The translations under genes were made by a program, and so were the position numbers. 64,000 nt of DNA, from the IMG/VR virus record IMGVR_UViG_3300002334_000064, positions 4,319-68,318 of that record, one strand, 5' to 3'. Numbering within the stretch: the first letter of the stretch is position 1; every line of letters begins with the position of its first letter. Source of the DNA: a virus. This document shows positions 7,193 through 34,852 of this stretch, one piece after another. Below the pieces are notes generated by a model, which had not been told where the DNA came from, did no database searches, and saw nothing but the letters and a program-made list of their open reading frames with translations.

Positions 7193-7228
7193 TTGCACTA
7201 CCCGATAAACACGGTAAGGTAGATGTGT
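7193..7228 (+). promoter_or_regulatory. Repeated sigma70-like promoter family, copy 1
   Basis: TTGCAC-16 nt-TAAGGT then AGATGTGT; shares CCGAT..ACGG spacer and downstream AAATGGGT with copies at 18975, 19361, 34782. Confidence 0.7.
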
Positions 7229-7262
7229 GATAAATGGGTATCACAAAATGAAAGGACAACAA

Positions 7263-7613: not shown

Positions 7614-7649
7614 ACCCGCTAAAGGTTGAGATGCCTTTGGTGGGTTTTT
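7614..7649 (+). terminator. Rho-independent terminator
   Basis: ACCCGCTAAAGG/CCTTTGGTGGGT stem followed by a T tract. Confidence 0.75.
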
Positions 7650-9095: not shown

Positions 9096-9120
9096 ATAGA
9101 TAAAAACGAAGGGACCGTCT

Positions 9121-9486
9121 ATGAGTTGGCTACAGAACGGAAACATGATGAGTGTTCTTGATGTTGTGGCGTCGTTCGCGGTAGGTGCCTCAATACTGAT
9201 GATGGTGTTTGAACTGGATATCTGCGTTCAAGGTAGATCACAGTTCAAAGGGCGAAAGAAGGTCAAACGATTCCCGCACGCGGTGATGCTGCTGATGTAT
9301 GCAGTAATCGTATTGTTCGGTTTACAGTTCTTGGATTACGTGGAGCAAGTACAGCGCGGTCCAGACGTTTCAACGGAAGAGACAATCACAGATGAACAAC
9401 GAAACACCAAAGATGAACAGGTATGTTGTGACGGTTCAATCGAAAGCGATTCATGCGGCGGCTCATTACTTGGAGTACTTGGATGA
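9121..9486 (+). CDS. Small membrane protein (2 TM helices)
   Basis: Two hydrophobic segments; leader AAACGAAGGGACCGTCT directly before the ATG. Confidence 0.6.
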   Translation: MSWLQNGNMMSVLDVVASFAVGASILMMVFELDICVQGRSQFKGRKKVKRFPHAVMLLMYAVIVLFGLQFLDYVEQVQRGPDVSTEETITDEQRNTKDEQVCCDGSIESDSCGGSLLGVLG

Positions 9487-9922: not shown

Positions 9923-10339
9923 ATGGGCAAGTACAAACTACAAGATGATTGGGTTCTCATCCGTCGAGACGACGACAGTACTCAGTACGGGGAGATTATC
10001 ATCGTTGTAAATAAGACGAGAAAGAACCGAGCGGTTACCGGCGTTGTTGTGCAAACGGGTGAATGTATTCAGGTGACAAAATCGAAAGAAGGAATGAATG
10101 GCGCTGAAAGATGCGGCGTCAAAGGTAAATTCATAGTGAAGTCCGGCGATGGTGTTTTGTTCCATGCTCTAGCCGGACATGACATGTTGACGAATGACGG
10201 TGTGCGATACGTTCAATGCACAGAGCACGACATTCATTTGGTGTTTGAAAACTCAGAAGACAGGTTTGAAGTTGAGCGTATGAAGACAAAGAAGCGGGAA
10301 CCCCTCACGACGAAGCACGTTGAGAAAGTCCGCAAGTAA
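9923..10339 (+). CDS. groES: GroES/Cpn10-like co-chaperonin
   Basis: LQDDWVLIRR, GEIIIV, GVVVQTGE, VKSGDGVLF, DGVRY..EHDI pattern. Confidence 0.8.
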   Translation: MGKYKLQDDWVLIRRDDDSTQYGEIIIVVNKTRKNRAVTGVVVQTGECIQVTKSKEGMNGAERCGVKGKFIVKSGDGVLFHALAGHDMLTNDGVRYVQCTEHDIHLVFENSEDRFEVERMKTKKREPLTTKHVEKVRK

Positions 10340-10379
10340 GCAACCATCAAATCGTAAAATACATTTGGAGAACAGAACA

Positions 10380-12509
10380 TTGACTACAATGAATACAGGT
10401 ACGGTCGGAACAACACGAGCACCAAAGCGGAAACCAACCGCAAGAGCACAAGTGTTGATGGCCCGGACGTATTGCCGCCCATTAGACAATCAAGACGGAA
10501 AAGAAGTGTTCGAGACGTGGGGTGAAACGGTTGACAGAACAATCTCACACCAACGATGGTTATGGGAAAGAGCGAAGGGATCATCGCTCACAAGAGGACA
10601 ACGAGAAGAACTGTATGAGTTGCGAGAGATTCAGCACGAGAGGTTGGGGCTGCTCTCAGGCAGAACGCTTTGGTTAGGCGGGACCGAGGTAGCACGCACG
10701 CGAGAAGCCTCACAATTTAATTGTGCGTTCACGGTGCTCCAAACGGTTTACGATATGGTTGACCTGTACTGGTTGCTTCTCCAAGGATCAGGCGTAGGGT
10801 TCCGCACAAAGGTCGGTAGCCTCTTTGGATTCGCCAAGTACATACCAGAGCTAGAAGTGATCCGTTCAACCCGTAAGGCTAAGGGCGGGCGTAAATCAAA
10901 CAACGAGTGGTTCGATACTGATACAGGTATCTGGACGATCCAGATTGGTGACTCTTCTGAATCATGGGCCAAGGCGCTCGGGAAGCTCGTATCACACAAG
11001 CATGCGAACGTTCAGAAGCTCGTCCTAGACTTCACGCATATCCGAGCGAAGGGCGCAAGGCTCTCGCGGTACGGATGGCAATCATGCGGGGACGAGAAGA
11101 TCGCCAGAGCATTCAAAGAAGTCTTTACGATTATGAATAACAAGGCTGACCAGATGCTCAGCCACCAGAACATCCACGATATAGCGAACCTGTGCGGAAC
11201 AACGCTATCGAATAGACGCGCTGCTGAACTGTCGTTGTTCTATTACGGTGAAGATGGTTGGGAAGACTTCGCAAACTGTAAAACAACGGTCTACAACGAA
11301 GACTTTGGGCCGGGCGAACACTGGTGGCGTGATATGTCCAACAACACGCTTTGCCATAGGACGAAACCGACAAAGCACCAGATACGCAATCAATTACTGA
11401 TGATGGCGAAATCAGGCGGATCGGAACCGGCGTTCCTTAATGAGAAAGAAGCACTGCGCCGAGCACCGTGGTTCAATGGGCCTAATCCGTGCGTCGAAAT
11501 CCTTCTTGCAAACAAGGGCTTCTGCAATCTCGTAACGATCAACCTTGCCGCAAGCGGTCACAGGAATGGCGAATGGTTTAATAGGCTGCTGAGAACCATA
11601 TACATCATGGCGAGAGCGAACTACAGACAGACGTGTGTAGACTTGCGTGATGGGATACTGCAACGGGCATGGCATGACAATAACCAGATGCTAAGGCTTT
11701 GCGGCGTATCGCTTGCGGGGATAGCTCAGCGAACGGACATAACAGCCGAGCAATGGCAGGAGCTAGCACAAGCCGCGAGGTTTGGCGCTAACGAGATGGC
11801 CGACGATCTAGGACTACCGAGACCGAAGAACGTGACGTGCGGTAAACCGGAAGGAACAGCCGCAAAGATCATGGGTTCGACGGTTGACGGTGAGACGTGT
11901 TCGGGTATCCATAATGCTTTAGGACGGTTTGAATTCAACAAGGTCAACTTCGGATCAGATGACCCGATACTTTCGGTTTTATTCGATGCGGGATACAAGG
12001 TAGACAAGCACCCCACAGATCCCCACACGGCACAGGTGACGTTCCCCGTTGACTATGGGGAAAGTGTGCCCGGTGTGGTCCACGAGAGTGCAGTAGAGCA
12101 ACTAGAGCGATACAAAGGGATGATGACCAATTGGTGTGACCAGAATATGAGTTGCACCATCTATTGGACCCCGCCCGGAATGAATCCGATAAATGGAGTG
12201 GACCAGCACTACCATCCGGGCGAGCTTGACGAGATCACCAGTTGGTTAGATGAGAACTGGGATACGATGGTAGCGGTGAGTTTCCTACCCCGTCAGAACG
12301 TGGAAGACTTGACGAAGCCCGAAAAACAGGTGTGTCAGGAAAAAGGTTACGCATATTTGCCGATTCGTATCGTATCTGAGACCGAGTACCGGCAATATAC
12401 AGAGAGGCTGAAACCGATTGATGAGAGCCTGCTATCTGGATCGACTGTACTAACTGTCGAAGCGGATGATGAACAAGGTTGCGATACGGGCGTTTGTCCT
12501 GTAAAGTGA
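10380..12509 (+). CDS. nrdJ: Class II (B12-dependent, monomeric RTPR-type) ribonucleotide reductase
   Basis: RTYCR..ETW, FNCAF, GSGVGF, NRRAAE, NPCVEI, GFCNL, KPEGT and C-terminal CDTGVCPVK redox pair. Confidence 0.93.
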   Translation: MTTMNTGTVGTTRAPKRKPTARAQVLMARTYCRPLDNQDGKEVFETWGETVDRTISHQRWLWERAKGSSLTRGQREELYELREIQHERLGLLSGRTLWLGGTEVARTREASQFNCAFTVLQTVYDMVDLYWLLLQGSGVGFRTKVGSLFGFAKYIPELEVIRSTRKAKGGRKSNNEWFDTDTGIWTIQIGDSSESWAKALGKLVSHKHANVQKLVLDFTHIRAKGARLSRYGWQSCGDEKIARAFKEVFTIMNNKADQMLSHQNIHDIANLCGTTLSNRRAAELSLFYYGEDGWEDFANCKTTVYNEDFGPGEHWWRDMSNNTLCHRTKPTKHQIRNQLLMMAKSGGSEPAFLNEKEALRRAPWFNGPNPCVEILLANKGFCNLVTINLAASGHRNGEWFNRLLRTIYIMARANYRQTCVDLRDGILQRAWHDNNQMLRLCGVSLAGIAQRTDITAEQWQELAQAARFGANEMADDLGLPRPKNVTCGKPEGTAAKIMGSTVDGETCSGIHNALGRFEFNKVNFGSDDPILSVLFDAGYKVDKHPTDPHTAQVTFPVDYGESVPGVVHESAVEQLERYKGMMTNWCDQNMSCTIYWTPPGMNPINGVDQHYHPGELDEITSWLDENWDTMVAVSFLPRQNVEDLTKPEKQVCQEKGYAYLPIRIVSETEYRQYTERLKPIDESLLSGSTVLTVEADDEQGCDTGVCPVK

Positions 12510-12518
12510 TGTTATAAT
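12510..12518 (+). promoter_or_regulatory. Extended -10 promoter (TGTTATAAT)
   Basis: Perfect TGnTATAAT immediately after the nrdJ stop, upstream of a two-hairpin element. Confidence 0.65.
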
Positions 12519-12523
12519 CATGC

Positions 12524-12628
12524 CCAACTTCTGACTCGGGTTGAGTACCCATTCTCCCCGAGTCCGTCGCAACGCCGGTTAGCAGTTTTCAGATGGTCCC
12601 AGCCGTTTAACTGCTAACCGGTTTTTTC
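12524..12628 (+). ncRNA. Candidate two-loop antisense small RNA
   Basis: Stem GACTCGGG/CCCGAGTC (12533-12564), 13-bp stem CCGGTTAGCAGTT/AACTGCTAACCGG (12575-12621) with a 21-nt loop, then T6; loops complementary to phage leader boxes. Confidence 0.65.
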
Positions 12629-12629
12629 A

Positions 12630-13121
12630 TTGAGTGACGAACAACAGAACAAAGGAATTGAAAAGATGTTTGCTACAACCAAGGACGGCAAGAAGGTAAG
12701 AAGCGGGGTTGAAGTCTATTGCCCTGTATGGGTGCTGTTGCAATGCACACCGGGCGAATTCCCCAACAAGAGAAAGCCGCTCTACTCGAAAAGAGATCGG
12801 TCTAAGAATGAACGTATGAGACCAAAGAAGTTCCATCTGATAATTGCGGCTGGCAATTGCGTTGTAGATGACAGTTGGCGCGGTAACGGGTACATCGGAG
12901 CTGGATTATCTGGCGTATCCACAAGTTCAATCGCCTCAAAGCTGAGAGTACCGATGAGTTCGTGCTATGAGGATTACTCTGTTCTGAACGATTTGGTGTG
13001 TAATCCTTCGTTCATGGGAGAGATTGGGAAGCCGCACATCGTGCTAGGCGAGATCATGGAGCCGGACCTACAACACAGTACTAAGTACCTGTTGCAGGTT
13101 GACCGGTCACAAGGGTTTTAA
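12630..13121 (+). CDS. Hypothetical protein (TKDG..V..G..V family)
   Basis: TTKDGKKVRSGVEVY resembles the repeats in the ORF at 15710. Confidence 0.6.
   Translation: MSDEQQNKGIEKMFATTKDGKKVRSGVEVYCPVWVLLQCTPGEFPNKRKPLYSKRDRSKNERMRPKKFHLIIAAGNCVVDDSWRGNGYIGAGLSGVSTSSIASKLRVPMSSCYEDYSVLNDLVCNPSFMGEIGKPHIVLGEIMEPDLQHSTKYLLQVDRSQGF
12842..12858. repeat. 17-bp palindrome variant (AATTGCGGCTGGCAATT), inside a CDS
   Basis: One mismatch to consensus. Confidence 0.8.
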
Positions 13122-13139
13122 TTAATTGAAAAGGAGCAG

Positions 13140-13415
13140 TTGATGAGTAGTGAACTATCAGGACAGATTCAAACAACACGTGGTTTATTGAAAGATCGAC
13201 CGGGTGGGTTTAACGAAACAGATAAGAAAGAGATGTTTCGCGCGTTGGATCGTTGGTTTGATCTTGCGAAAGAGATCGAAGAGAGGATTCGGGTTGCGGA
13301 GGATAAATTGAGAGACATAGAAAGTTACAAACCGGCAGAGCGTAAGAGAGTTGGTGATGCGTGGATAGATGACGTACAAAACGTGAGTGAATCAGGAGAC
13401 ATTAGCAATGCTTGA
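13140..13415 (+). CDS. Hypothetical protein
   Basis: AGGAG ribosome-binding site; coiled-coil-like. Confidence 0.65.
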   Translation: MMSSELSGQIQTTRGLLKDRPGGFNETDKKEMFRALDRWFDLAKEIEERIRVAEDKLRDIESYKPAERKRVGDAWIDDVQNVSESGDISNA

Positions 13416-13791
13416 TGATGGAACAGATGAGCCGAGAGAACTGAGAGACGTGATATTTAATCTAGGCGATCACACAACACACAAAGATAGACCGTTTACA
13501 GGGCAGCCGCATACAGATCAAGGATTGCGCGGCAAACAAGAAGTGTCCGGTATACGGTTTCGAGACGTTGCCGATTGCATTGTGCGTGCGATGATCTACG
13601 GTAACAAAGACGCAACCGATGAAATGCGTAGGCGTGCCGATGACGGTACATTGAACTACAACGATGTTTATGATTTAGATTTTTCAGGCATTGATCCGAT
13701 TGCGATTGTACAGAATGCGATGTGTGAGATTGAGAAAATGATGGGTATATATCCGAATATCCCAGAACCAAAAGAAGGCGATGAAAAGTGA
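13408..13791 (+). CDS. Hypothetical phage protein
   Basis: AGGAG ribosome-binding site before the ATG at 13408. Confidence 0.7.
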   Translation: MLDDGTDEPRELRDVIFNLGDHTTHKDRPFTGQPHTDQGLRGKQEVSGIRFRDVADCIVRAMIYGNKDATDEMRRRADDGTLNYNDVYDLDFSGIDPIAIVQNAMCEIEKMMGIYPNIPEPKEGDEK

Positions 13792-14261
13792 TATACGATC
13801 AATTCAGCGGAATACTTACGTTGGCTTGCATGGTGGCTTGTTTGGTGTTTGGTGTTGCTTTGATGGCGAATTGGTTTGATTGGTTTCGACCGCGAAAAGA
13901 CAAGGAGGATGAAAAGAAAGACGGATATTTCACACCCATCATGGAACTGTACAAAGATGGTAATACGTCCATCCCCATCGGTGTACCGTTAGTATGTGTT
14001 GGCGGAGCGACAACCGAAGAACTACAAGAAGTGTTACGCCGTATGATGGATGCATCTGATTCGGACGGTATCTCAATCCCTTGCGGAGTGACAACCGAAG
14101 AGTTACAAGAAGAGTTACGCCGCATGATGGAACTTCTCAAGTGGGTGCGTCAAGAATCTCTTGATGCCGGTGCTCGTAACGATAAAGAGTCGCATCGTGC
14201 GTGTCTTGCGATACACACAAGGGTTTCAGATACGATTAGAAAAATAGAAAGAGGCGAATGA
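13788..14261 (+). CDS. Membrane protein with internal 27-aa duplication
   Basis: N-terminal TM; GATTEELQEVLRRMM / GVTTEELQEELRRMM. Confidence 0.65.
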   Translation: MIYDQFSGILTLACMVACLVFGVALMANWFDWFRPRKDKEDEKKDGYFTPIMELYKDGNTSIPIGVPLVCVGGATTEELQEVLRRMMDASDSDGISIPCGVTTEELQEELRRMMELLKWVRQESLDAGARNDKESHRACLAIHTRVSDTIRKIERGE

Positions 14262-14656
14262 TGTTGTGGTATGCGTTAGCGATTTTGTGTCTGTGCTTGA
14301 TTGTGTATCTAGGCGTAATTTTTTTGAAATGGTTGGGTGCTTTATCTAGGAACGTTTCACGTCTGATTGAAAGGGACAAAGCACACGAGGAAGCCATACG
14401 GGGATTGTTGGATGCCGGGAAAGACAATGCGGTGATGATGGGTTTACTCAACAGTCAAACCCTAGACATCATTAAGCGATTGGAATCGGTCGAAGGAAAA
14501 GTTGATGTCCTTGAATACAAAGTCGATTTAGGCGGCGAGTCATTTGATGATTGGGTTCAAGAGATAGGTCTACTCATGTCGAAGATAGGCGTGGTTGAAT
14601 CTCGGATATCGCACATTGAGAGCGACCTTGATTCTGACGTGTCTCCAAACGGCTAG
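14258..14656 (+). CDS. Membrane-anchored coiled-coil protein
   Basis: N-terminal TM followed by a heptad pattern. Confidence 0.65.
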   Translation: MMLWYALAILCLCLIVYLGVIFLKWLGALSRNVSRLIERDKAHEEAIRGLLDAGKDNAVMMGLLNSQTLDIIKRLESVEGKVDVLEYKVDLGGESFDDWVQEIGLLMSKIGVVESRISHIESDLDSDVSPNG

Positions 14657-14742
14657 ATCGAGACATGTAAGGGAATGGGCACCAATTCGTCAAGAAAACG
14701 TGTAGGATGCCCGATGAATGGATAAGTTGGCGTTCGGTGTAG

Positions 14743-15417
14743 ATGACTCTACAATACCCATGCGGGCGAACGTATGTTTTAGTTGGCACCGAAAGGATCG
14801 AGAAAATGGGACTCACACAATCTGAAATCAGGCGCGAGAATTTATACAAGTTGTGCCTTGTAAAGATGGCAGAGAGCAACACGACGGAAGAAACTGCTTT
14901 AAATCCTAAAGTGCTTGAAGCTTTGTCTGAAGACTTTACACTTGATGAATATGTTGCGGCGCTAGAAGATTTACATCAAATGGCATCTTTCGGTATCTGG
15001 CGAGGCGTGCATTCGTGGAACCTAGATGGTGATAACAATCTTGTTATCGTCTACAACTATTGGATTCCCAACAAAGAAAAGAAGACCGATCACATCGATA
15101 CCGCGATGATCGAGGGTGTGGTTAAAAATGCTTCACAAGAATTACTTGGCGTCCTTGAAAATATGAATGTGGTTATGAAACGAATCATTGAAGAACGAGA
15201 CAAGGCACGCCAACAGTTAAAAGAGACTCATCTTGAATTGGAAGCGTCACATGTAATCGTGAATCGTTTTATAGATGGTCAGATACATGCTTGGCGTACT
15301 GTTTGCACAAGAGAGAAATCGAATATATCAGACCAATCAAAACTGAGAAATAAGGTGCGGCATACGCTCAATAACCCAAACCCCAACAGTTATTTGATTA
15401 GACCCCACACAAGGTAA
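14743..15417 (+). CDS. Hypothetical protein
   Basis: 224-aa ORF in the co-oriented block. Confidence 0.6.
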   Translation: MTLQYPCGRTYVLVGTERIEKMGLTQSEIRRENLYKLCLVKMAESNTTEETALNPKVLEALSEDFTLDEYVAALEDLHQMASFGIWRGVHSWNLDGDNNLVIVYNYWIPNKEKKTDHIDTAMIEGVVKNASQELLGVLENMNVVMKRIIEERDKARQQLKETHLELEASHVIVNRFIDGQIHAWRTVCTREKSNISDQSKLRNKVRHTLNNPNPNSYLIRPHTR

Positions 15418-15425
15418 AGATTTGT

Positions 15426-15713
15426 ATGACACGCAAGAAAGACCTAAGGCTGAGGCGTAGAGCCGAGAAGCGCCGATGGAAGGACCGAGGTAAGAAGGAT
15501 CGACGCACACAACGCGGCTACCCTTCAACGATCGTCTTCCACGATATCGGGCCGCTCGGTACGGCTGAGGCAGAGCGTGAGTATCAGAGAGGTCGTCACG
15601 GGATAGATTGGCGGGGGTTTGTGACTATTAGCGCGTTCAGGTCACTTGTGAGGGTCACCGGAAGATTGACCAGCAAATTGGGAAGCTTTTTCAGAAGGTA
15701 CGATGACCAATGA
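15426..15713 (+). CDS. Basic hypothetical protein
   Basis: Arg/Lys-rich N-terminus; ATGA overlap with the next gene. Confidence 0.55.
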   Translation: MTRKKDLRLRRRAEKRRWKDRGKKDRRTQRGYPSTIVFHDIGPLGTAEAEREYQRGRHGIDWRGFVTISAFRSLVRVTGRLTSKLGSFFRRYDDQ

Positions 15714-16405
15714 ACGATAAAGAATGTATGGTAGATCAAGAGTTTTTGGAATTGCTCCGAGAACGAAATGAAAAACGGTTTAAAACTGAACTTGAAGGGA
15801 CTTTTGAAATGGGTAACGAAATGGGTAATCCTTGCTTGGATATTGACATTGACACAAGAGACGCGCAATATTCGCGTCGAAGTGCTCAGGTTCAATTTCC
15901 GAAGACGAAAGACGGCGTACAGGTGTTTGCTGGTGACCGCGTGGTGATGCTCCACAACGACAAGTTCTATGGTGCGACGGTGCGAGAGTCACAGGACGAA
16001 TCCTTAAGCAGTCGCGGAGTACAAGCACTTGAGGCGGTAGTGTGTTTTCACAAGGCGTACATGCCCGCGTTAGACGTTTCACAGTTCTATTCGTCAATCG
16101 GGGACGCAACACACGAGAGGAACCGTAGAAGCAATCTACGGTCCTGTGATCGTGTGTACATGACACGTGACGGGTATGACGTGCAAGAGGGCGATATCGT
16201 CTTTGTTTGCGTAAGTGTGAACTACAACAACCGCACAATGCCGAACGGTGAGATTGATAACGGTATCCGTGCGTGTACTGTACGCCGCAATACGGAGTGC
16301 GAGGGTGGCGCGTGCGTTCAAGTGGACAACGTGCAAATAATCGCAATCTCTCAGGTTGAGGCGGACGTTGCGAATCTGATTCTTCGATTTAAAATAGGTT
16401 CATAA
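15710..16405 (+). CDS. Hypothetical protein with two SH3/KOW-like TKDG repeats
   Basis: KTKDGVQVFAGDRV and MTRDGYDVQEGDIV. Confidence 0.65.
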   Translation: MNDKECMVDQEFLELLRERNEKRFKTELEGTFEMGNEMGNPCLDIDIDTRDAQYSRRSAQVQFPKTKDGVQVFAGDRVVMLHNDKFYGATVRESQDESLSSRGVQALEAVVCFHKAYMPALDVSQFYSSIGDATHERNRRSNLRSCDRVYMTRDGYDVQEGDIVFVCVSVNYNNRTMPNGEIDNGIRACTVRRNTECEGGACVQVDNVQIIAISQVEADVANLILRFKIGS

Positions 16406-16412
16406 TCTTCAT

Positions 16413-16429
16413 AATTGCGAGCCGCAATT
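16413..16429. repeat. 17-bp palindrome copy, intergenic
   Basis: Exact consensus. Confidence 0.95.
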
Positions 16430-16455
16430 CAAAATCTCAAGGTCAATATACAGGT

Positions 16456-16722
16456 ATGAACGAAGAACAAACCAATCGTGATATGGAATTGAACTACAGG
16501 GAATGGCAAACCAGACGAGAGAACCGCAAGCGGGTATTTCAAAAGGTCACGGACTCGTGCAAAGGAACACAGAATGCAGTTTCTCATCTAGTCACGACGA
16601 TCGGCGGAATGAGTAAATCGATACGTGATTTCTCTCTAGCCGTTGAAGGGATCGCGTTGGATCAAAAGAACTTCTACCTTCCGGTAAGGTCGGTAGTGTC
16701 TAAGATTGTCGGTCGCAGATAA
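16456..16722 (+). CDS. Hypothetical protein
   Basis: 88-aa ORF. Confidence 0.55.
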   Translation: MNEEQTNRDMELNYREWQTRRENRKRVFQKVTDSCKGTQNAVSHLVTTIGGMSKSIRDFSLAVEGIALDQKNFYLPVRSVVSKIVGRR

Positions 16723-16817
16723 CAGGTAGGGGTGTGAGTGGTGTACGCGGCTTTTTGTTCTGAGTCGTTCCGTGAAAGCGGGTCACATCCCTACCTTTCA
16801 ATACAAGGACGAATGAA

Positions 16818-17033
16818 TTGTTGCGTTTCAATGGGTCTATAATCGAGCGCAAGCCGTGCCCTACGTGTGACGGTAAAGGATCGGTGCCTTGCCCTACAAC
16901 GTATAGCGTGCGAACACAGAACGATCTAGGGCCGTTCCCTCAAGCGAGCGACGGATACCCGATACCTTGCCCCGAATGCGATGGCAAGAAAACAGTTGTA
17001 AATGGGAATGATTCAAAGGTAGAGCAAGAATGA
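16818..17033 (+). CDS. Small DnaJ-type zinc-finger protein
   Basis: CPTCDGKG and CPECDGK repeats. Confidence 0.6.
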   Translation: MLRFNGSIIERKPCPTCDGKGSVPCPTTYSVRTQNDLGPFPQASDGYPIPCPECDGKKTVVNGNDSKVEQE

Positions 17034-17347
17034 AACGCGACCAAGAGAAAGCAATCGTTCAGAAGTTCATCGTGTACCGAATCCTCTTCTGTCGCATATA
17101 CGGTGAAGGGACGCATCCGAGTACGTACAAGATTGTCGGCATGGGTCACGGCACGCTATGGGTAACGGTCAGTGCGAACCTTGCACGCGAGACGTTCCGC
17201 AAACAACTTGTATCCGATATGCTGAAGATGAACGTGACGCGAGAGATTCTAAAACAGGTGTGGCCGAAAGTGTGTTGCGGTGAAAAGAACATCGCAAAGA
17301 CCGCCAAGGAATTCGTACGCGCCATCAAAGAAGTTGAGGACATGTAG
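17030..17347 (+). CDS. Hypothetical protein
   Basis: ATGA overlap with the upstream gene. Confidence 0.6.
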   Translation: MKRDQEKAIVQKFIVYRILFCRIYGEGTHPSTYKIVGMGHGTLWVTVSANLARETFRKQLVSDMLKMNVTREILKQVWPKVCCGEKNIAKTAKEFVRAIKEVEDM

Positions 17348-17641
17348 ATGATTTATATTCAAGCGAGCCGGATTGTTATCTGTATTTCTTCTATCGCAGT
17401 CCTAGTGCTGATTGGTGCTTCTATTTTTGCCATCGCAGACGGATTTCGGGACGCGCAAAACAACAAGCACTTAGAATCAAATACTCTTGTGACTGTCGAG
17501 ATTGAATCGGGTGACGTGCGCGAGTACGAAAACCTGCGATTGAAAGTGAGTACATACCGTGAGTTCAGATATCAGAATGGTGATACAGTGTTCTTCCCGA
17601 TGAATGCGACGATTACGATTACCAAACAAGAGATTGAGTAG
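17348..17641 (+). CDS. Membrane-anchored hypothetical protein
   Basis: N-terminal TM; GAGG ribosome-binding site. Confidence 0.6.
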   Translation: MIYIQASRIVICISSIAVLVLIGASIFAIADGFRDAQNNKHLESNTLVTVEIESGDVREYENLRLKVSTYREFRYQNGDTVFFPMNATITITKQEIE

Positions 17642-18775
17642 ATGACAAAGAACAGATGCAGGGTATTTCGCGGGGATTGCGTAAACCTTGCGTCCAGACT
17701 GCCGGACAACTACGTACACAGTATCGTGACCGATCCGCCCTACGGCATAAAGTTCATGGGGAAAGATTGGGATGGTCCGGGCGGCGTAGCTTTCCAAAAA
17801 GAGACTTGGGAAGAGTTCTTAAGGGTTCTAAAGCCCGGCGGTCACGTGCTCGCGTTCGGCGGAACAAGAATGCATCATCGGTTGATGGTTGCGATTGAAG
17901 ATACCGGGTTTGAGATACGCGATTGTTTGATGTGGTTGTATGGCTCGGGCTTCCCTAAGTCTCACAACGTCAGTAAAGGGATTGACAAAGCGGCGGGGGC
18001 AACCGGAACGAGAGGTTCGCTAAAAAGAGGCGGGGATCGATTAGCGAGTCTTGAAAATGGCAAGCGAGACGGCAAAGGACGATGGGGAGATGAGGTAGGG
18101 AGGAACCCTTATACTACAATTCCCGCAACCGATGCCGCAAAACAATGGGACGGATGGGGCACCGCACTAAAGCCAGCATGGGAACCGATCGTACTCGCCC
18201 GTAAACCGTTCAATGGCACCGTTGCAAAGAACGTACAAGAGCATGGTACGGGCGCAATGAACATTGACGGGTGTAGGGTTGGGACGGATGATAGTCTTGG
18301 TGGTGGAGCCACTAAGGGGAAAACAGTTTGTTCTCATAACGGGGAGGCTTGGGATCGGCCTTGGAAACATAATGATGATGCGAGGGAATCCCACGCATCC
18401 AGAGTTAGAGACAACGTAGTAAAAGCCGAAATGCTTGGCCGCTGGCCCGCAAACCTAATACTTGATGGGGAAGCTGGTGCAATACTTGATGAATCTGTAA
18501 AAGAATCACCATCCCGGTTCTTCTACTGCCCAAAGACGAATAAAAAAGAACGCAATCTAAATGGGTGTGACAACAGACACCCGACCGTTAAGCCGACAGA
18601 GCTTATGCGGTATCTCGTGCGACTCATCACGCCACCGAACGGAATCGTTCTTGATCCGTTTTGCGGATCGGGTTCAACTGGCCTAGCGTGCCAACGCGAA
18701 AATATGCGCTTCATCGGTTTCGACAAAGACATAGAATCCGTGCAATGGGCACGCAAGAGAATGGGGATAGACTAA
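17642..18775 (+). CDS. DNA N4/N6 methyltransferase (beta class)
   Basis: VTDPPYG catalytic motif before HPTVKP and LDPFCGSGSTG SAM motif. Confidence 0.93.
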   Translation: MTKNRCRVFRGDCVNLASRLPDNYVHSIVTDPPYGIKFMGKDWDGPGGVAFQKETWEEFLRVLKPGGHVLAFGGTRMHHRLMVAIEDTGFEIRDCLMWLYGSGFPKSHNVSKGIDKAAGATGTRGSLKRGGDRLASLENGKRDGKGRWGDEVGRNPYTTIPATDAAKQWDGWGTALKPAWEPIVLARKPFNGTVAKNVQEHGTGAMNIDGCRVGTDDSLGGGATKGKTVCSHNGEAWDRPWKHNDDARESHASRVRDNVVKAEMLGRWPANLILDGEAGAILDESVKESPSRFFYCPKTNKKERNLNGCDNRHPTVKPTELMRYLVRLITPPNGIVLDPFCGSGSTGLACQRENMRFIGFDKDIESVQWARKRMGID

Positions 18776-19010: not shown

Positions 19011-19041
19011 AAAGAGAGCAACAAACAAAGGGACCAGAACA

Positions 19042-19360: not shown

Positions 19361-19396
19361 TTGCGTTGACCGATGTAGACGGTAAGATAGACGTGT
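19361..19396 (+). promoter_or_regulatory. Repeated promoter family, copy 3
   Basis: TTGCGT-16 nt-TAAGAT-AGACGTGT then AATGGGTGCT. Confidence 0.8.
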
Positions 19397-19444
19397 AGCA
19401 AATGGGTGCTACGAAACGAACCGCGAAACGAAAAGGGACAAACA

Positions 19445-19774: not shown

Positions 19775-19800
19775 ATTGACGGTGAAACGAAAGGGACAAA

Positions 19801-20448: not shown

Positions 20449-20709
20449 ATGTCGAAATGCCAAAAAGTTAAAGAATCAAGCCTTGTTCAAATGAAGTCGA
20501 TCCGCTTCACGAACAACAAGGGGCATCGGTTAGACGTTGAGGTTTACGAGAACACAGATGATGTTGTGATTCGTCTTTTCATTGACGATGTAACTTCAAG
20601 GTTCGTTCTCGATTCAGGTGTAGCGCAACGAGTGATTGATTTCATAGCTGACGGATACGGATCAGAAAACAAGGATGATGATAATGGGCAAAAACAAAAA
20701 AATGGGTAG
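20449..20709 (+). CDS. Hypothetical protein
   Basis: 86-aa ORF. Confidence 0.55.
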   Translation: MSKCQKVKESSLVQMKSIRFTNNKGHRLDVEVYENTDDVVIRLFIDDVTSRFVLDSGVAQRVIDFIADGYGSENKDDDNGQKQKNG

Positions 20710-20896
20710 TCTGGTACTTACGCGTAAACCAATGGAAACGATTTGCGTTGGCGACGATGTACGCGTGACGGTTATTAGGGTAAAAGGGGACCGGGTTCGT
20801 ATCAAGATCGAAGCGCCGATATCGCTCTCAATTGATCGTTTGGAGATCAGAGAGAAGATTGAACAGGAAACAGAAAAGGAGAATGCAAATGAGTGA
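20702..20896 (+). CDS. csrA: Carbon storage regulator CsrA/RsmA-like RNA-binding protein
   Basis: LVLTRKPMETICVGDDVRVTVIRVKGDRVRIKIEAP..IDRLEI matches the CsrA consensus MLVLTRKxGESIxIGDDIxVTVxxVxGxxVRIGIxAPxxVxIxRxE. Confidence 0.9.
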   Translation: MGSLVLTRKPMETICVGDDVRVTVIRVKGDRVRIKIEAPISLSIDRLEIREKIEQETEKENANE

Positions 20897-21442: not shown

Positions 21443-21478
21443 TTGACACCGCGCCAAACGTGTGAGAGAATACACGTG
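21443..21478 (+). promoter_or_regulatory. Sigma70-like promoter
   Basis: TTGACA-17 nt-GAGAAT followed by ACACGTG. Confidence 0.6.
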
Positions 21479-21672
21479 CTTTGATTAGCCGAGAGGCTTC
21501 GACATTTCGAGTAACTCTTTTGGGAAAGGGTAGAACAATGCTTGAGCTTTAAAACATGGCAACCGAAACAAACAAAACTCTTCTCTCTTTCTCTGTGAAG
21601 TGTCTTAGTTGATACTTCATCGACGAGCGCCCGCAACCAGTAAGGTCGTCTTTAGCTGGTTGCGGGTTTTTC
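21478..21672 (+). ncRNA. Candidate ~190-nt small RNA (or micro-ORF transcript)
   Basis: Lies between a promoter and a strong terminator, has no ORF over 18 aa, and contains several hairpins. Confidence 0.45.
21630..21672 (+). terminator. Rho-independent terminator
   Basis: CCCGCAACCAG/CTGGTTGCGGG stem plus T5. Confidence 0.8.
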
Positions 21673-22897: not shown

Positions 22898-23104
22898 ATG
22901 GACCCGTCAGAAATCAGTACGTTTATTGAATTCCTCGTGTGGTGCTTTGAATCGCTCCATCGGTTCATCGGCCTGCTATTGCTCTTTTTCCTTGCATCGC
23001 TACTGTTCTCGGTTGGGTTGTCTGAAGGTTTTGGTAAGTTTTGTTTAGTGAGAATCACCAAAAGCCAAGACACAAATAATTATCAATGGAACAAGGATGA
23101 GTAA
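22898..23104 (+). CDS. Small membrane protein
   Basis: Hydrophobic segment; overlaps the next start. Confidence 0.45.
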   Translation: MDPSEISTFIEFLVWCFESLHRFIGLLLLFFLASLLFSVGLSEGFGKFCLVRITKSQDTNNYQWNKDE

Positions 23105-23981
23105 GATTCCGCTATTTGAACCATGTACCGCCAACCACGTTTTAGACAAAACGTCTGAACGTGGTTGGTTTTTTAATCAATTGGTTCTCATAGAAGGGAC
23201 GTTCGGCGCGGGACGATGGGACTGGTGGATTGCTCGAACGATGAAAGACGGAAGGCTCGGGAATCACCAGATACCGCAAATAGAATTCATCGACTCACCA
23301 CAATCTAAACCGGCCCCTAGGATCGGCTGGGACGCGTCGATGTGTGAATTGGCGTCAACACCGGGTGAGACGTTCAAGCTCGCTACAGACGTGTTTGATA
23401 GGCTCATGCGTGACGGTACGAACGTGTCTTGCATCCTCGATTGGTTCCTGTACGCGTGCGGGGACAATTCGGTAGAAAGACCCAAACATCTATCCGGTGA
23501 ACATGAAGTGTTCTTGTATCAAGAGGGTATGTTGATGCTCTCGCGTATGATCGCCAATCCGACCGATTGGGGCCAACACATCGCCGGGTATATTCAGGGT
23601 GGCGGCAAACAGTTTACCGGGTGGTTCCCTACGCCCGTGTGCCTGTCTCGCTTGATGGTTGAAGCGACATTCAACGAACCAGAGAAAAACGATTACCGAT
23701 TGAAAAGTGTTTGCGATCCGTGCGTAGGTACGGGTGTGATGCTGCTACACGCGTCGAACTACTCGCTTGATCTTTACGGACAAGATATCGACGTGGTAAT
23801 GCTGAAGTGGTGTAGATTGAATGGGTATCTATTCGCGCCTTGGATGGTTGCGAAGTGGCACAAGATGTTGGAAGAGTACGAGAATCGACCGGTTGAACAA
23901 TCAACCGACAAATCAAATACGTTCCGTAGGCGCGGCAAAGTCTACAGAGTAAAGAGAAAGAAAAAGGTGATAGCAAGATGA
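23097..23981 (+). CDS. N6-methyltransferase-like protein (SAM motif only)
   Basis: FPTP, VCDPCVGTGVML, YGQDID; no NPPF/Y motif seen. Confidence 0.75.
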   Translation: MSKIPLFEPCTANHVLDKTSERGWFFNQLVLIEGTFGAGRWDWWIARTMKDGRLGNHQIPQIEFIDSPQSKPAPRIGWDASMCELASTPGETFKLATDVFDRLMRDGTNVSCILDWFLYACGDNSVERPKHLSGEHEVFLYQEGMLMLSRMIANPTDWGQHIAGYIQGGGKQFTGWFPTPVCLSRLMVEATFNEPEKNDYRLKSVCDPCVGTGVMLLHASNYSLDLYGQDIDVVMLKWCRLNGYLFAPWMVAKWHKMLEEYENRPVEQSTDKSNTFRRRGKVYRVKRKKKVIAR

Positions 23982-34781: not shown

Positions 34782-34817
34782 TTGCACGAACCGATTTAGA
34801 CGGTAAGATAGACGTGT
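34782..34817 (+). promoter_or_regulatory. Repeated promoter family, copy 4
   Basis: TTGCAC-16 nt-TAAGAT-AGACGTGT then AAATGGGTGC..AAAGGGAC. Confidence 0.8.
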
Positions 34818-34852
34818 GGCAAATGGGTGCCATAAACAAAGGGACTAGAAAA

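Follow-up and report, generated by a model that had tools for sequence, protein, structure and literature searches.

The 3′-untranslated region (3′-UTR)-type small RNAs DapZ and MicL reportedly start from a promoter of their own at the end of an upstream gene and use the terminator common to both transcripts. The CI RNA of phage P4 is said to be a small phage RNA that pairs with repeated leader boxes; it is reportedly processed from the leader and brings about premature termination of its own operon. In CopA/CopT and RNAI/RNAII, antisense RNAs that are cis-encoded and fully complementary to their targets engage them by loop–loop kissing, and at lambda PR′-tR′ a strong terminator stands a short way behind a constitutive promoter, ahead of a long co-directional gene block. 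A published account describes trans-acting small RNAs that act on a phage's own genes as few (c4, sar, and a handful more), presents c4 of P1/P7 as a 77-nucleotide (nt) trans-acting RNA that binds complementary regions around the ribosome binding site, with the complements probably in loops, and lists lambda 6S as a phage small RNA (PMC12197685). We describe here a terminator that may double as a small-RNA gene, at positions 12510–12628 on the + strand of a 64,000-nt stretch of phage DNA (the window), bases 4319–68318 of the 68,318-base pair (bp) IMG/VR virus record IMGVR_UViG_3300002334_000064, which is rated complete. A preliminary description, made from the letters of the DNA alone, had proposed a two-loop antisense RNA at this site that silences a dispersed early regulon.

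The element directly follows nrdJ (10458–12509, + strand), which encodes a class II (adenosylcobalamin-dependent) ribonucleotide reductase. In the reading we favor, to which we assign a probability of about 40%, it is put to two uses, serving as the nrdJ terminator and as the gene of a small RNA with its own promoter, which would contact AAUGGG loops through the loop of its first hairpin. The stretch 12574–12627 is certainly a terminator and, by position, the one expected for the nrdJ unit: a stable hairpin followed by a U tract, as in intrinsic terminators, lies 64 nt past the nrdJ stop codon (TGA, 12507–12509) and at the end of the unit. This hairpin (hairpin 2, 12574–12622, + strand) comprises 14 bp, a 3-nt bulge (12588–12590), a 7-bp inner helix (12591–12597 with 12602–12608, predicted as AGAUGGU/GCCGUUU), and the loop CCCA (12598–12601); it folds to −29.2 kcal/mol alone and runs into a T6 tract (12622–12627, + strand). 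Its region (−29.7 kcal/mol) ranks third in strength among 50 T-run sites on the + strand, and a simple terminator scan, which allows only loops of 3–8 nt in an uninterrupted stem, had omitted the 12622 site. Upstream lies hairpin 1 (12533–12564, + strand), with an 8-bp stem (12533–12540 with 12557–12564) and a 16-nt loop (12541–12556; −16.9 kcal/mol alone). From 12518 on, 111 nt have a predicted folding energy of −47.8 kcal/mol, compared with −23.8 ± 3.3 for shuffled sequences (z = −7.4; 0 of 200 shuffles as good). Both hairpins and the T6 tract lie where the preliminary description had placed them, whereas its "unusually large 21-nt loop" gives way to the predicted 7-bp inner helix with a 4-nt loop, part of a long two-tier design that is usual in this genome. 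According to the favored reading, hairpin 2 and U6 would terminate the nrdJ transcription unit, with hairpin 1 as an accessory 3′ hairpin. The site is the single terminator between the nrdJ stop codon and the next gene and would be common to the nrdJ mRNA and the short RNA.

The case for an RNA of its own begins with a perfect extended −10, TGTTATAAT, at 12510–12518 (+ strand), directly after the nrdJ TGA, exactly as first described. If it is active as a promoter, it would start an RNA at ~12525–12526 that ends at the terminator common with nrdJ. Taking 12526 as the start, the ~100-nt product would open with a 7-nt 5′ tail and hairpin 1, which a 9-nt linker joins to hairpin 2 and the U tail. 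The two strands of the window (128 kb together) hold a single copy of the word TGNTATAAT, and it sits 7–8 nt ahead of the structured RNA. A location within the 23 nt that separate the stop codon from a terminated structure of ~100 nt is unlikely by chance, and it is the place rather than the count that is notable: by our own estimate, a single TGNTATAAT would fall within about 30 nt upstream of one of ~10 terminator modules in only a few cases in a thousand. The four strong promoters of this phage, described below, imply that the host polymerase reads sigma-70-type signals, and a second unit of promoter, noncoding stretch, and terminator, at 21443–21672, makes such units a feature of this genome. 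On this sequence and fold-prediction basis, we lean toward the existence of an own-promoter RNA of ~100 nt from the 12510–12628 region, which we regard as somewhat probable.

Two further observations concern the same stretch. The linker CCGUCGCAA (12565–12573, + strand), which is single-stranded in the predicted short RNA, can pair with 12477–12485 in a read-through nrdJ transcript; hairpin 1 would then lie inside an 8-bp long-range helix (GUUGCGAU with GUCGCAAC), and the linker would no longer be free. On the minus strand, a 105-codon open reading frame (ORF; 12235–12552) starts exactly at the AATGGGT complement in hairpin 1 and is antisense to the nrdJ 3′ end; it is probably spurious.

The proposed partners of hairpin 1 belong to a set of repeated promoter modules. 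Four copies were found, with −35 hexamers at 7193, 18975, 19361, and 34782, each composed of an A-rich upstream part, TTGC(A/G)(C/T), a 16-nt spacer, TAAG(A/G)T, and AGA(C/T)GTGT (4 matches at up to 3 mismatches, where 0.03 are expected). The predicted transcripts of three of them open with a 6-bp hairpin that displays a constant AAUGGG loop. These leader hairpins, all on the + strand, lie at 7227–7244, behind the module TTGCAC-16-TAAGGT at 7193–7220 (stem GUGAUA/UAUCAC; loop unpaired probability 0.34), at 19395–19412, behind the module at 19361–19388 (GUAGCA/UGCUAC; 0.85), and at 34816–34833, behind the module at 34782–34809 (GUGGCA/UGCCAU; 0.94). Compensatory changes affect 3 of the 6 stem pairs, with all 20 of 20 cells paired. 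Judged by this covariation, the AAUGGG leader element is a real RNA-type hairpin. Reading the repeated box as an operator in double-stranded DNA was considered and thought unlikely, since the flanks covary as a stem while the center is constant. The fourth module (18975) lacks the AAUGGG hairpin and carries AAAGAGAGCAAC instead.

Hairpin 1 presents the complement of this box. Its loop contains ACCCAUU (12547–12553, + strand), complementary to the AAUGGGU box (box A) of all three leader hairpins and part of the longer word AGTACCCATT at 12544–12553; the corresponding AATGGGT stands at 7233, 19401, and 34822, with AATGGGTA at 20701. A weak inner helix, GAGU/AUUC, is predicted inside the hairpin, and ACCCAUU has an unpaired probability of 0.148, with an opening cost of 1.2 kcal/mol. 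Among 786 simple + strand hairpins (ΔG ≤ −4; 134 of them intergenic), CCCAUU appears in the loop of hairpin 1 alone. At the level of sequence, the match of loop 1 to box A is real, and it is rare. In the mechanism we propose, ACCCAUU would kiss the AAUGGG loops at the 5′ ends of three sigma-70-type transcripts (7227, 19395, and 34816), forming a contact of 6–7 bp that may extend to 9–10 bp when the target stem opens (hybrid energies −12.3 to −15.2). It could also pair with A-AUG-GG start regions such as those of csrA at 20683 and 20701. With the target hairpins at the very 5′ end of their transcripts, mRNA stability and translation would be equally likely points of action. That loop 1 acts in trans on the AAUGGG 5′ hairpins is plausible, and we propose it tentatively; from the complementarity we infer a contact, and any effect on the targets, in whichever direction, would follow from it.

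The csrA gene deserves separate mention. The phage homologue lies at 20684–20896 (Pfam CsrA, 8.5e-18), and its start carries two AAUGGG words, at 20683 and 20701. Within the GGGAC leaders discussed below is GGA, the core of CsrA sites. A CsrA-sponge reading of the short RNA was rejected, as the RNA contains no GGA. In the PHROGs and Pfam scans, the genes behind the modules received no family assignment, apart from csrA, which lies farther along the 19361 unit.

The apex of hairpin 2 supplies a second complementary segment. The segment AGAUGGUCCCAGCCGUUU (12591–12608, + strand), given as AGATGGTCCCAGCCGTTT in the preliminary description, is complementary to AAACG-N-GGGAC(C) ribosome-binding leaders (box B). 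Leaders of the form AAAC(G/A)AA(A)GGGAC recur before 9121, 19042, 19445, 19801, and 34853. The best match to the apex is AAACGAAGGGACCGUCU at 9104–9120 (+ strand), directly before the ATG at 9121, where GGGACCGTCT with AAACG upstream forms 10 bp (one G-U) plus 5 bp with a hybrid energy of −19.5 and a net energy of −6.4 kcal/mol. The words AAACGAAA(A)GGGAC precede 19445 and 19801, in the ribosome-binding leaders AAACGAAAAGGGAC (19426–19439, + strand) and AAACGAAAGGGAC (19785–19797, + strand), respectively, and GGGACCA (19030–19036, + strand) lies in the leader of the fourth module, before 19042. AAACG-N2-5-GGGAC has four copies on the + strand of the genome, while its bipartite complement, GTCCC-N2-5-CGTTT, occurs on that strand of the 68-kb genome only once, at the hairpin 2 apex. 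All complementary words quoted in the preliminary description, AGTACCCATT and AGATGGTCCCAGCCGTTT included, were found at their positions. Of the two, ACCCAUU of loop 1 is accessible, and the apex segment is predicted to form part of the hairpin 2 helix (unpaired probability 5.8e-6 for the whole segment and 6.3e-6 for AGAUGGUCCC, with an opening cost of 7.4 kcal/mol). The GUCCC...CGUUU segment could contribute only once the weak inner helix opens. For the terminator loops of small RNAs, a published report describes a role in fepA control that is "likely without base-pairing" (PMC11979758), so that this case does not strengthen the idea of a pairing apex in the present RNA. A broader reading, in which a riboregulator of ~100 nt from the 3′ end of nrdJ kisses AAUGGG loops through loop 1 and pairs with AAACRAARGGGAC leaders through the opened apex, forming an RNA-only trans switch that turns off or destabilizes dispersed leader modules, appears unlikely to us. 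An inverted duplication of the leader module was rejected as the origin of the complements, the likeness extending over only 8–18 nt and the order of the segments being unlike that of an inverted copy.

Measured against chance, the significance of this complementarity is moderate and mixed. On hybrid energy only, loop 1 against the three box A hairpins reaches −14.0, compared with −6.8 ± 1.9 for shuffles (0.3% of 2000 as good), and the hairpin 2 apex against six box B leaders reaches −13.3, compared with −7.9 ± 1.6 (0.6% of 2000 as good). When accessibility was included, the six leaders ranked 5, 6, 8, 11, 16, and 28 among 83 start regions, a mean rank of 12.3 against 33.7 ± 10.5 for shuffled loops (1.6% of 317 as good). 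An unbiased scan of every 100-nt window, on either strand, for matches to the six leaders placed the candidate in the top 0.52%. The energy tools used leave out kissing interactions, and duplexfold on whole 100-nt windows was set aside since it permits huge interior loops.

Several results weigh against the favored reading, and they sustain the strongest of its competitors, in which the locus is an ordinary terminator: hairpin 2 with U6 would end the nrdJ unit, hairpin 1 would protect the 3′ end, and the extended −10 and the complements would be coincidental. The first of these results concerns architecture. The nine intergenic T-runs with the most stable upstream hairpins, among the 50 on the + strand, are those at 21667, 47975, 12622, 7645, 23169, 28932, 43790, 47388, and 58714. 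Like that at 12622, the terminators at 21667 and 23169 consist of a long two-tier stem that includes an inner helix, and an additional upstream hairpin precedes those at 7645, 47975, and 21667. The two-hairpin, two-tier layout is the usual unit end in this phage, with strong versions of one or the other design at 7645, 21667, 23169, and 47975, so the architecture needs no small-RNA explanation; placement directly after a stop codon likewise suits a unit end. As for the promoter, no recognizable −35 stands upstream of TGTTATAAT, and the single copy of TGNTATAAT matches chance expectation (1.33 ± 1.06 expected; 76 of 100 shuffles with at least one).

The targets are subject to similar reservations. 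The summed accessibility-corrected energy over the six leaders, −26.0, is equaled by 36% of 250 loop shuffles (−23.0 ± 8.9), partly because shuffling frees the hairpin 2 apex. The preliminary description had named a target ranking no better than that of shuffled loops as evidence against itself; this is what the summed energies gave, while the mean rank was reached by few shuffles, as reported above. The best predicted target, 23323–23339 (net −12.6 kcal/mol), lies outside the proposed set and pairs over 14 bp with the hairpin 2 apex, probably by chance: by our own estimate, ~0.6 exact 10-mers are expected by chance in the 6.6 kb of start regions, and the 23323 hit is such a case. In the scan of 100-nt segments, the candidate was fifth of five distinct + strand loci, and four minus-strand loci were equal or better, making eight other loci that match the leaders as well. 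Natural 100-mer decoys next to terminators equaled or exceeded its summed energy in two of nine cases (47388 and 21667), through CU-rich tracts. Because the six leaders were selected with the matches already in view, and have motifs in common, the p-values overstate independence. Finally, AATGGGT is over-represented in the window, with 21 sites on both strands (18 on the +) against 8.0 ± 2.8 expected; copies beyond the three leaders, the 7751 start, and the csrA 5′ end fall within coding sequence, in all three frames. What speaks against a plain terminator is the placement of TGNTATAAT, with its low chance estimate, the restriction of the loop 1/box A complement to one hairpin in 786, the rank test at 1.6%, and the uniqueness of the bipartite complement on the + strand of the genome. 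We consider the plain terminator possible, if on balance doubtful.

A further alternative is a promoter-proximal attenuator of the lambda PR′-tR′ 6S type, in which the extended −10 would drive the genes of 12666–18775, the terminator ~100 nt on would be read through only with the help of a phage antitermination factor, and the short RNA would be a by-product. It is consistent with the 38 nt from 12628 to 12665, up to the next start, which hold no sigma-70-like promoter, and with the genes past the terminator at 7645, which also lack a recognizable promoter. The unit at 21443–21672 has a like layout, in which a promoter and ~190 noncoding nt with a strong terminator are followed by a gene 28 nt later. 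No competing antiterminator fold was found, since pairing of the left arm with the 5′ part reaches −14.2 kcal/mol at best against −29.2 for the terminator, and no antiterminator is named among the 40 proteins scanned with PHROGs and Pfam, though many ORFs lack a family assignment. A −10-like hexamer at 12839–12844, beside a copy of a repeated palindrome described below, could also serve the downstream genes. We consider an attenuator rather improbable.

The unit at 21443–21672, apparently noncoding, merits description in its own right. It begins with TTGACA-17-GAGAAT, with TG, and its ~190 nt contain micro-ORFs only. An unpaired CU-rich tract lies at ~21578–21596, and the unit ends at the strongest terminator of the window (−31.4 kcal/mol). 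The last 100 nt match the six leaders as well as the candidate does (sum −32.0).

The weakest reading is the full model of the preliminary description, a C4/CI-like immunity or switch RNA whose two exposed loops act on box A and box B to silence a dispersed early regulon: both complementary segments exist and their hybrid-only energies beat the shuffles (0.3% and 0.6% of 2000 as good), but with the second segment paired (unpaired probability ~6e-6), no Rfam match over 12510–12628 even at E ≤ 10, anti-A and anti-B in an order that does not match the succession A, B as a continuous antiparallel duplex would require, a target set that is not clearly early, and no integrase or repressor among the 40 scanned proteins in a search that was not exhaustive, the C4-like model with two exposed loops is weak and its correctness very improbable. 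The terminase and structural block, with the packaging genes, lies behind one of the four modules (34782); the modules are dispersed as claimed, early timing is doubtful for that part, and labeling all of them early is an assumption. Rfam presumably holds a C4 model. It returned no match at gathering score anywhere in the window, and at E ≤ 10 over 12400–12700 it gave only four chance hits of small nucleolar RNA type, all within 12415–12493. Membership in the C4 family thus found no support, and judged by the Rfam result the putative short RNA would belong to no described RNA family.

The chain of long ORFs (those listed have at least 100 amino acids) lies wholly on the + strand. On the left are genes for a UvsX-like recombinase, an exonuclease, an SbcD-like nuclease, and thymidylate synthase, followed by one for a GroES-like protein and then by nrdJ. 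The nrdJ product is 100% identical to a 683-amino acid database protein (P0001; Pfam PF21995), which is encoded on six contigs, the present record included; the ORF is open from 10320 (10320–12509, 729 codons), and the length of P0001 places the start at 10458. Gene starts were taken from our own crude caller, which is wrong for some genes, such as nrdJ and 23097–23981. In a tblastn search of GenBank phages with NrdJ, the 1078 phage records were all below 60% identity (best 48%), and the closest proteins in a large collection, P0003 and P0002, are 59% and 51% identical. The similarity of P0003 ends after residue 530 of 565, resembling a frameshift or assembly error, and in P0002 the N-terminal 100 residues, ahead of the conserved core, are unrelated. 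TerL is at most 26% identical to GenBank phages, and a 1097-amino acid protein is without any match. By the NrdJ (at most 48% among GenBank phages and 59% in the large collection) and TerL identities, the phage is an orphan lineage.

Searches for relatives came back empty or gave chance matches. A "distant" blastn search of 12300–12900 against phages gave zero matches. No relative was confirmed in a viral contig collection searched with NrdJ, P0003, TerL, and a sequence alignment; viral contigs searched with the hairpin 1 word and with the promoter word gave 0 matches each, and none was found in metagenome contigs searched with P0003. A degenerate promoter word matched 38 metagenome-contig loci and 36 genome-contig loci, all as single matches whose flanks agree at no more than 32 of 90 positions, as expected by chance.

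Two side observations bear on the annotation of the genome. A 17-bp palindrome, AATTGCG-NNN-CGCAATT, occurs at 18 sites between 1555 and 59331 (up to 3 mismatches), often overlapping the stop codon of one gene 15–40 nt ahead of the next start. At 12842, 16413, and 20345, a −10-like hexamer ends in the opening bases of the palindrome; the copy at 12842 lies inside the ORF just downstream of the nrdJ terminator. Separately, the terminator hairpin that ends at 23169–23173 lies within the 5′ part of a 294-codon ORF (23097–23981), so that this methyltransferase-like gene probably starts at 23241 or 23340.

If the RNA of the favored reading exists and contacts the 5′ hairpins, a single RNA loop would coordinate several dispersed promoter–leader modules, and the conserved AAUGGG hairpin would gain a function. 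If not, the locus is a normal terminator, and short complements to purine-rich ribosome-binding leaders are easily found in terminator hairpins that contain pyrimidines.

As in lambda 6S/PR′-tR′, a promoter motif is followed by a near, strong terminator ahead of a long co-directional gene block; unlike there, no Q-like factor or pause element was identified, and the downstream genes are not late genes. The loop–loop complement of 6–7 nt proposed as the first contact recalls CopA/CopT and RNAI/RNAII, with the difference that the partners here would be trans-encoded and share only 7–10 nt. Pairing with repeated boxes in leader transcripts, as proposed here, is also a likeness to the P4 CI RNA. 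With c4, the candidate would share a phage-encoded, trans-acting nature and a loop-borne complement near a ribosome binding site; it differs from c4 in the absence of an Rfam match, in a second segment that is predicted to be helical, and in targets that are dispersed rather than gathered in one operon.

The locus also resembles intrinsic terminators with an accessory upstream hairpin, where a co-directional gene block closes with a stop codon, a G+C-rich hairpin, and a U tract. From plain terminators it is set apart by the extended −10 between the stop codon and the hairpins and by two apical regions that both complement repeated leader motifs of the same phage. By analogy, the closest architecture appears to be that of the 3′-UTR-type small RNAs with their own promoter and the terminator of the mRNA. 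The proposed seed lies in a hairpin loop, whereas theirs lies in a single-stranded 5′ region. As with DapZ and MicL, a promoter motif at the end of a coding sequence precedes ~100 nt that reuse the mRNA terminator, with both promoter and RNA predicted in the present case.

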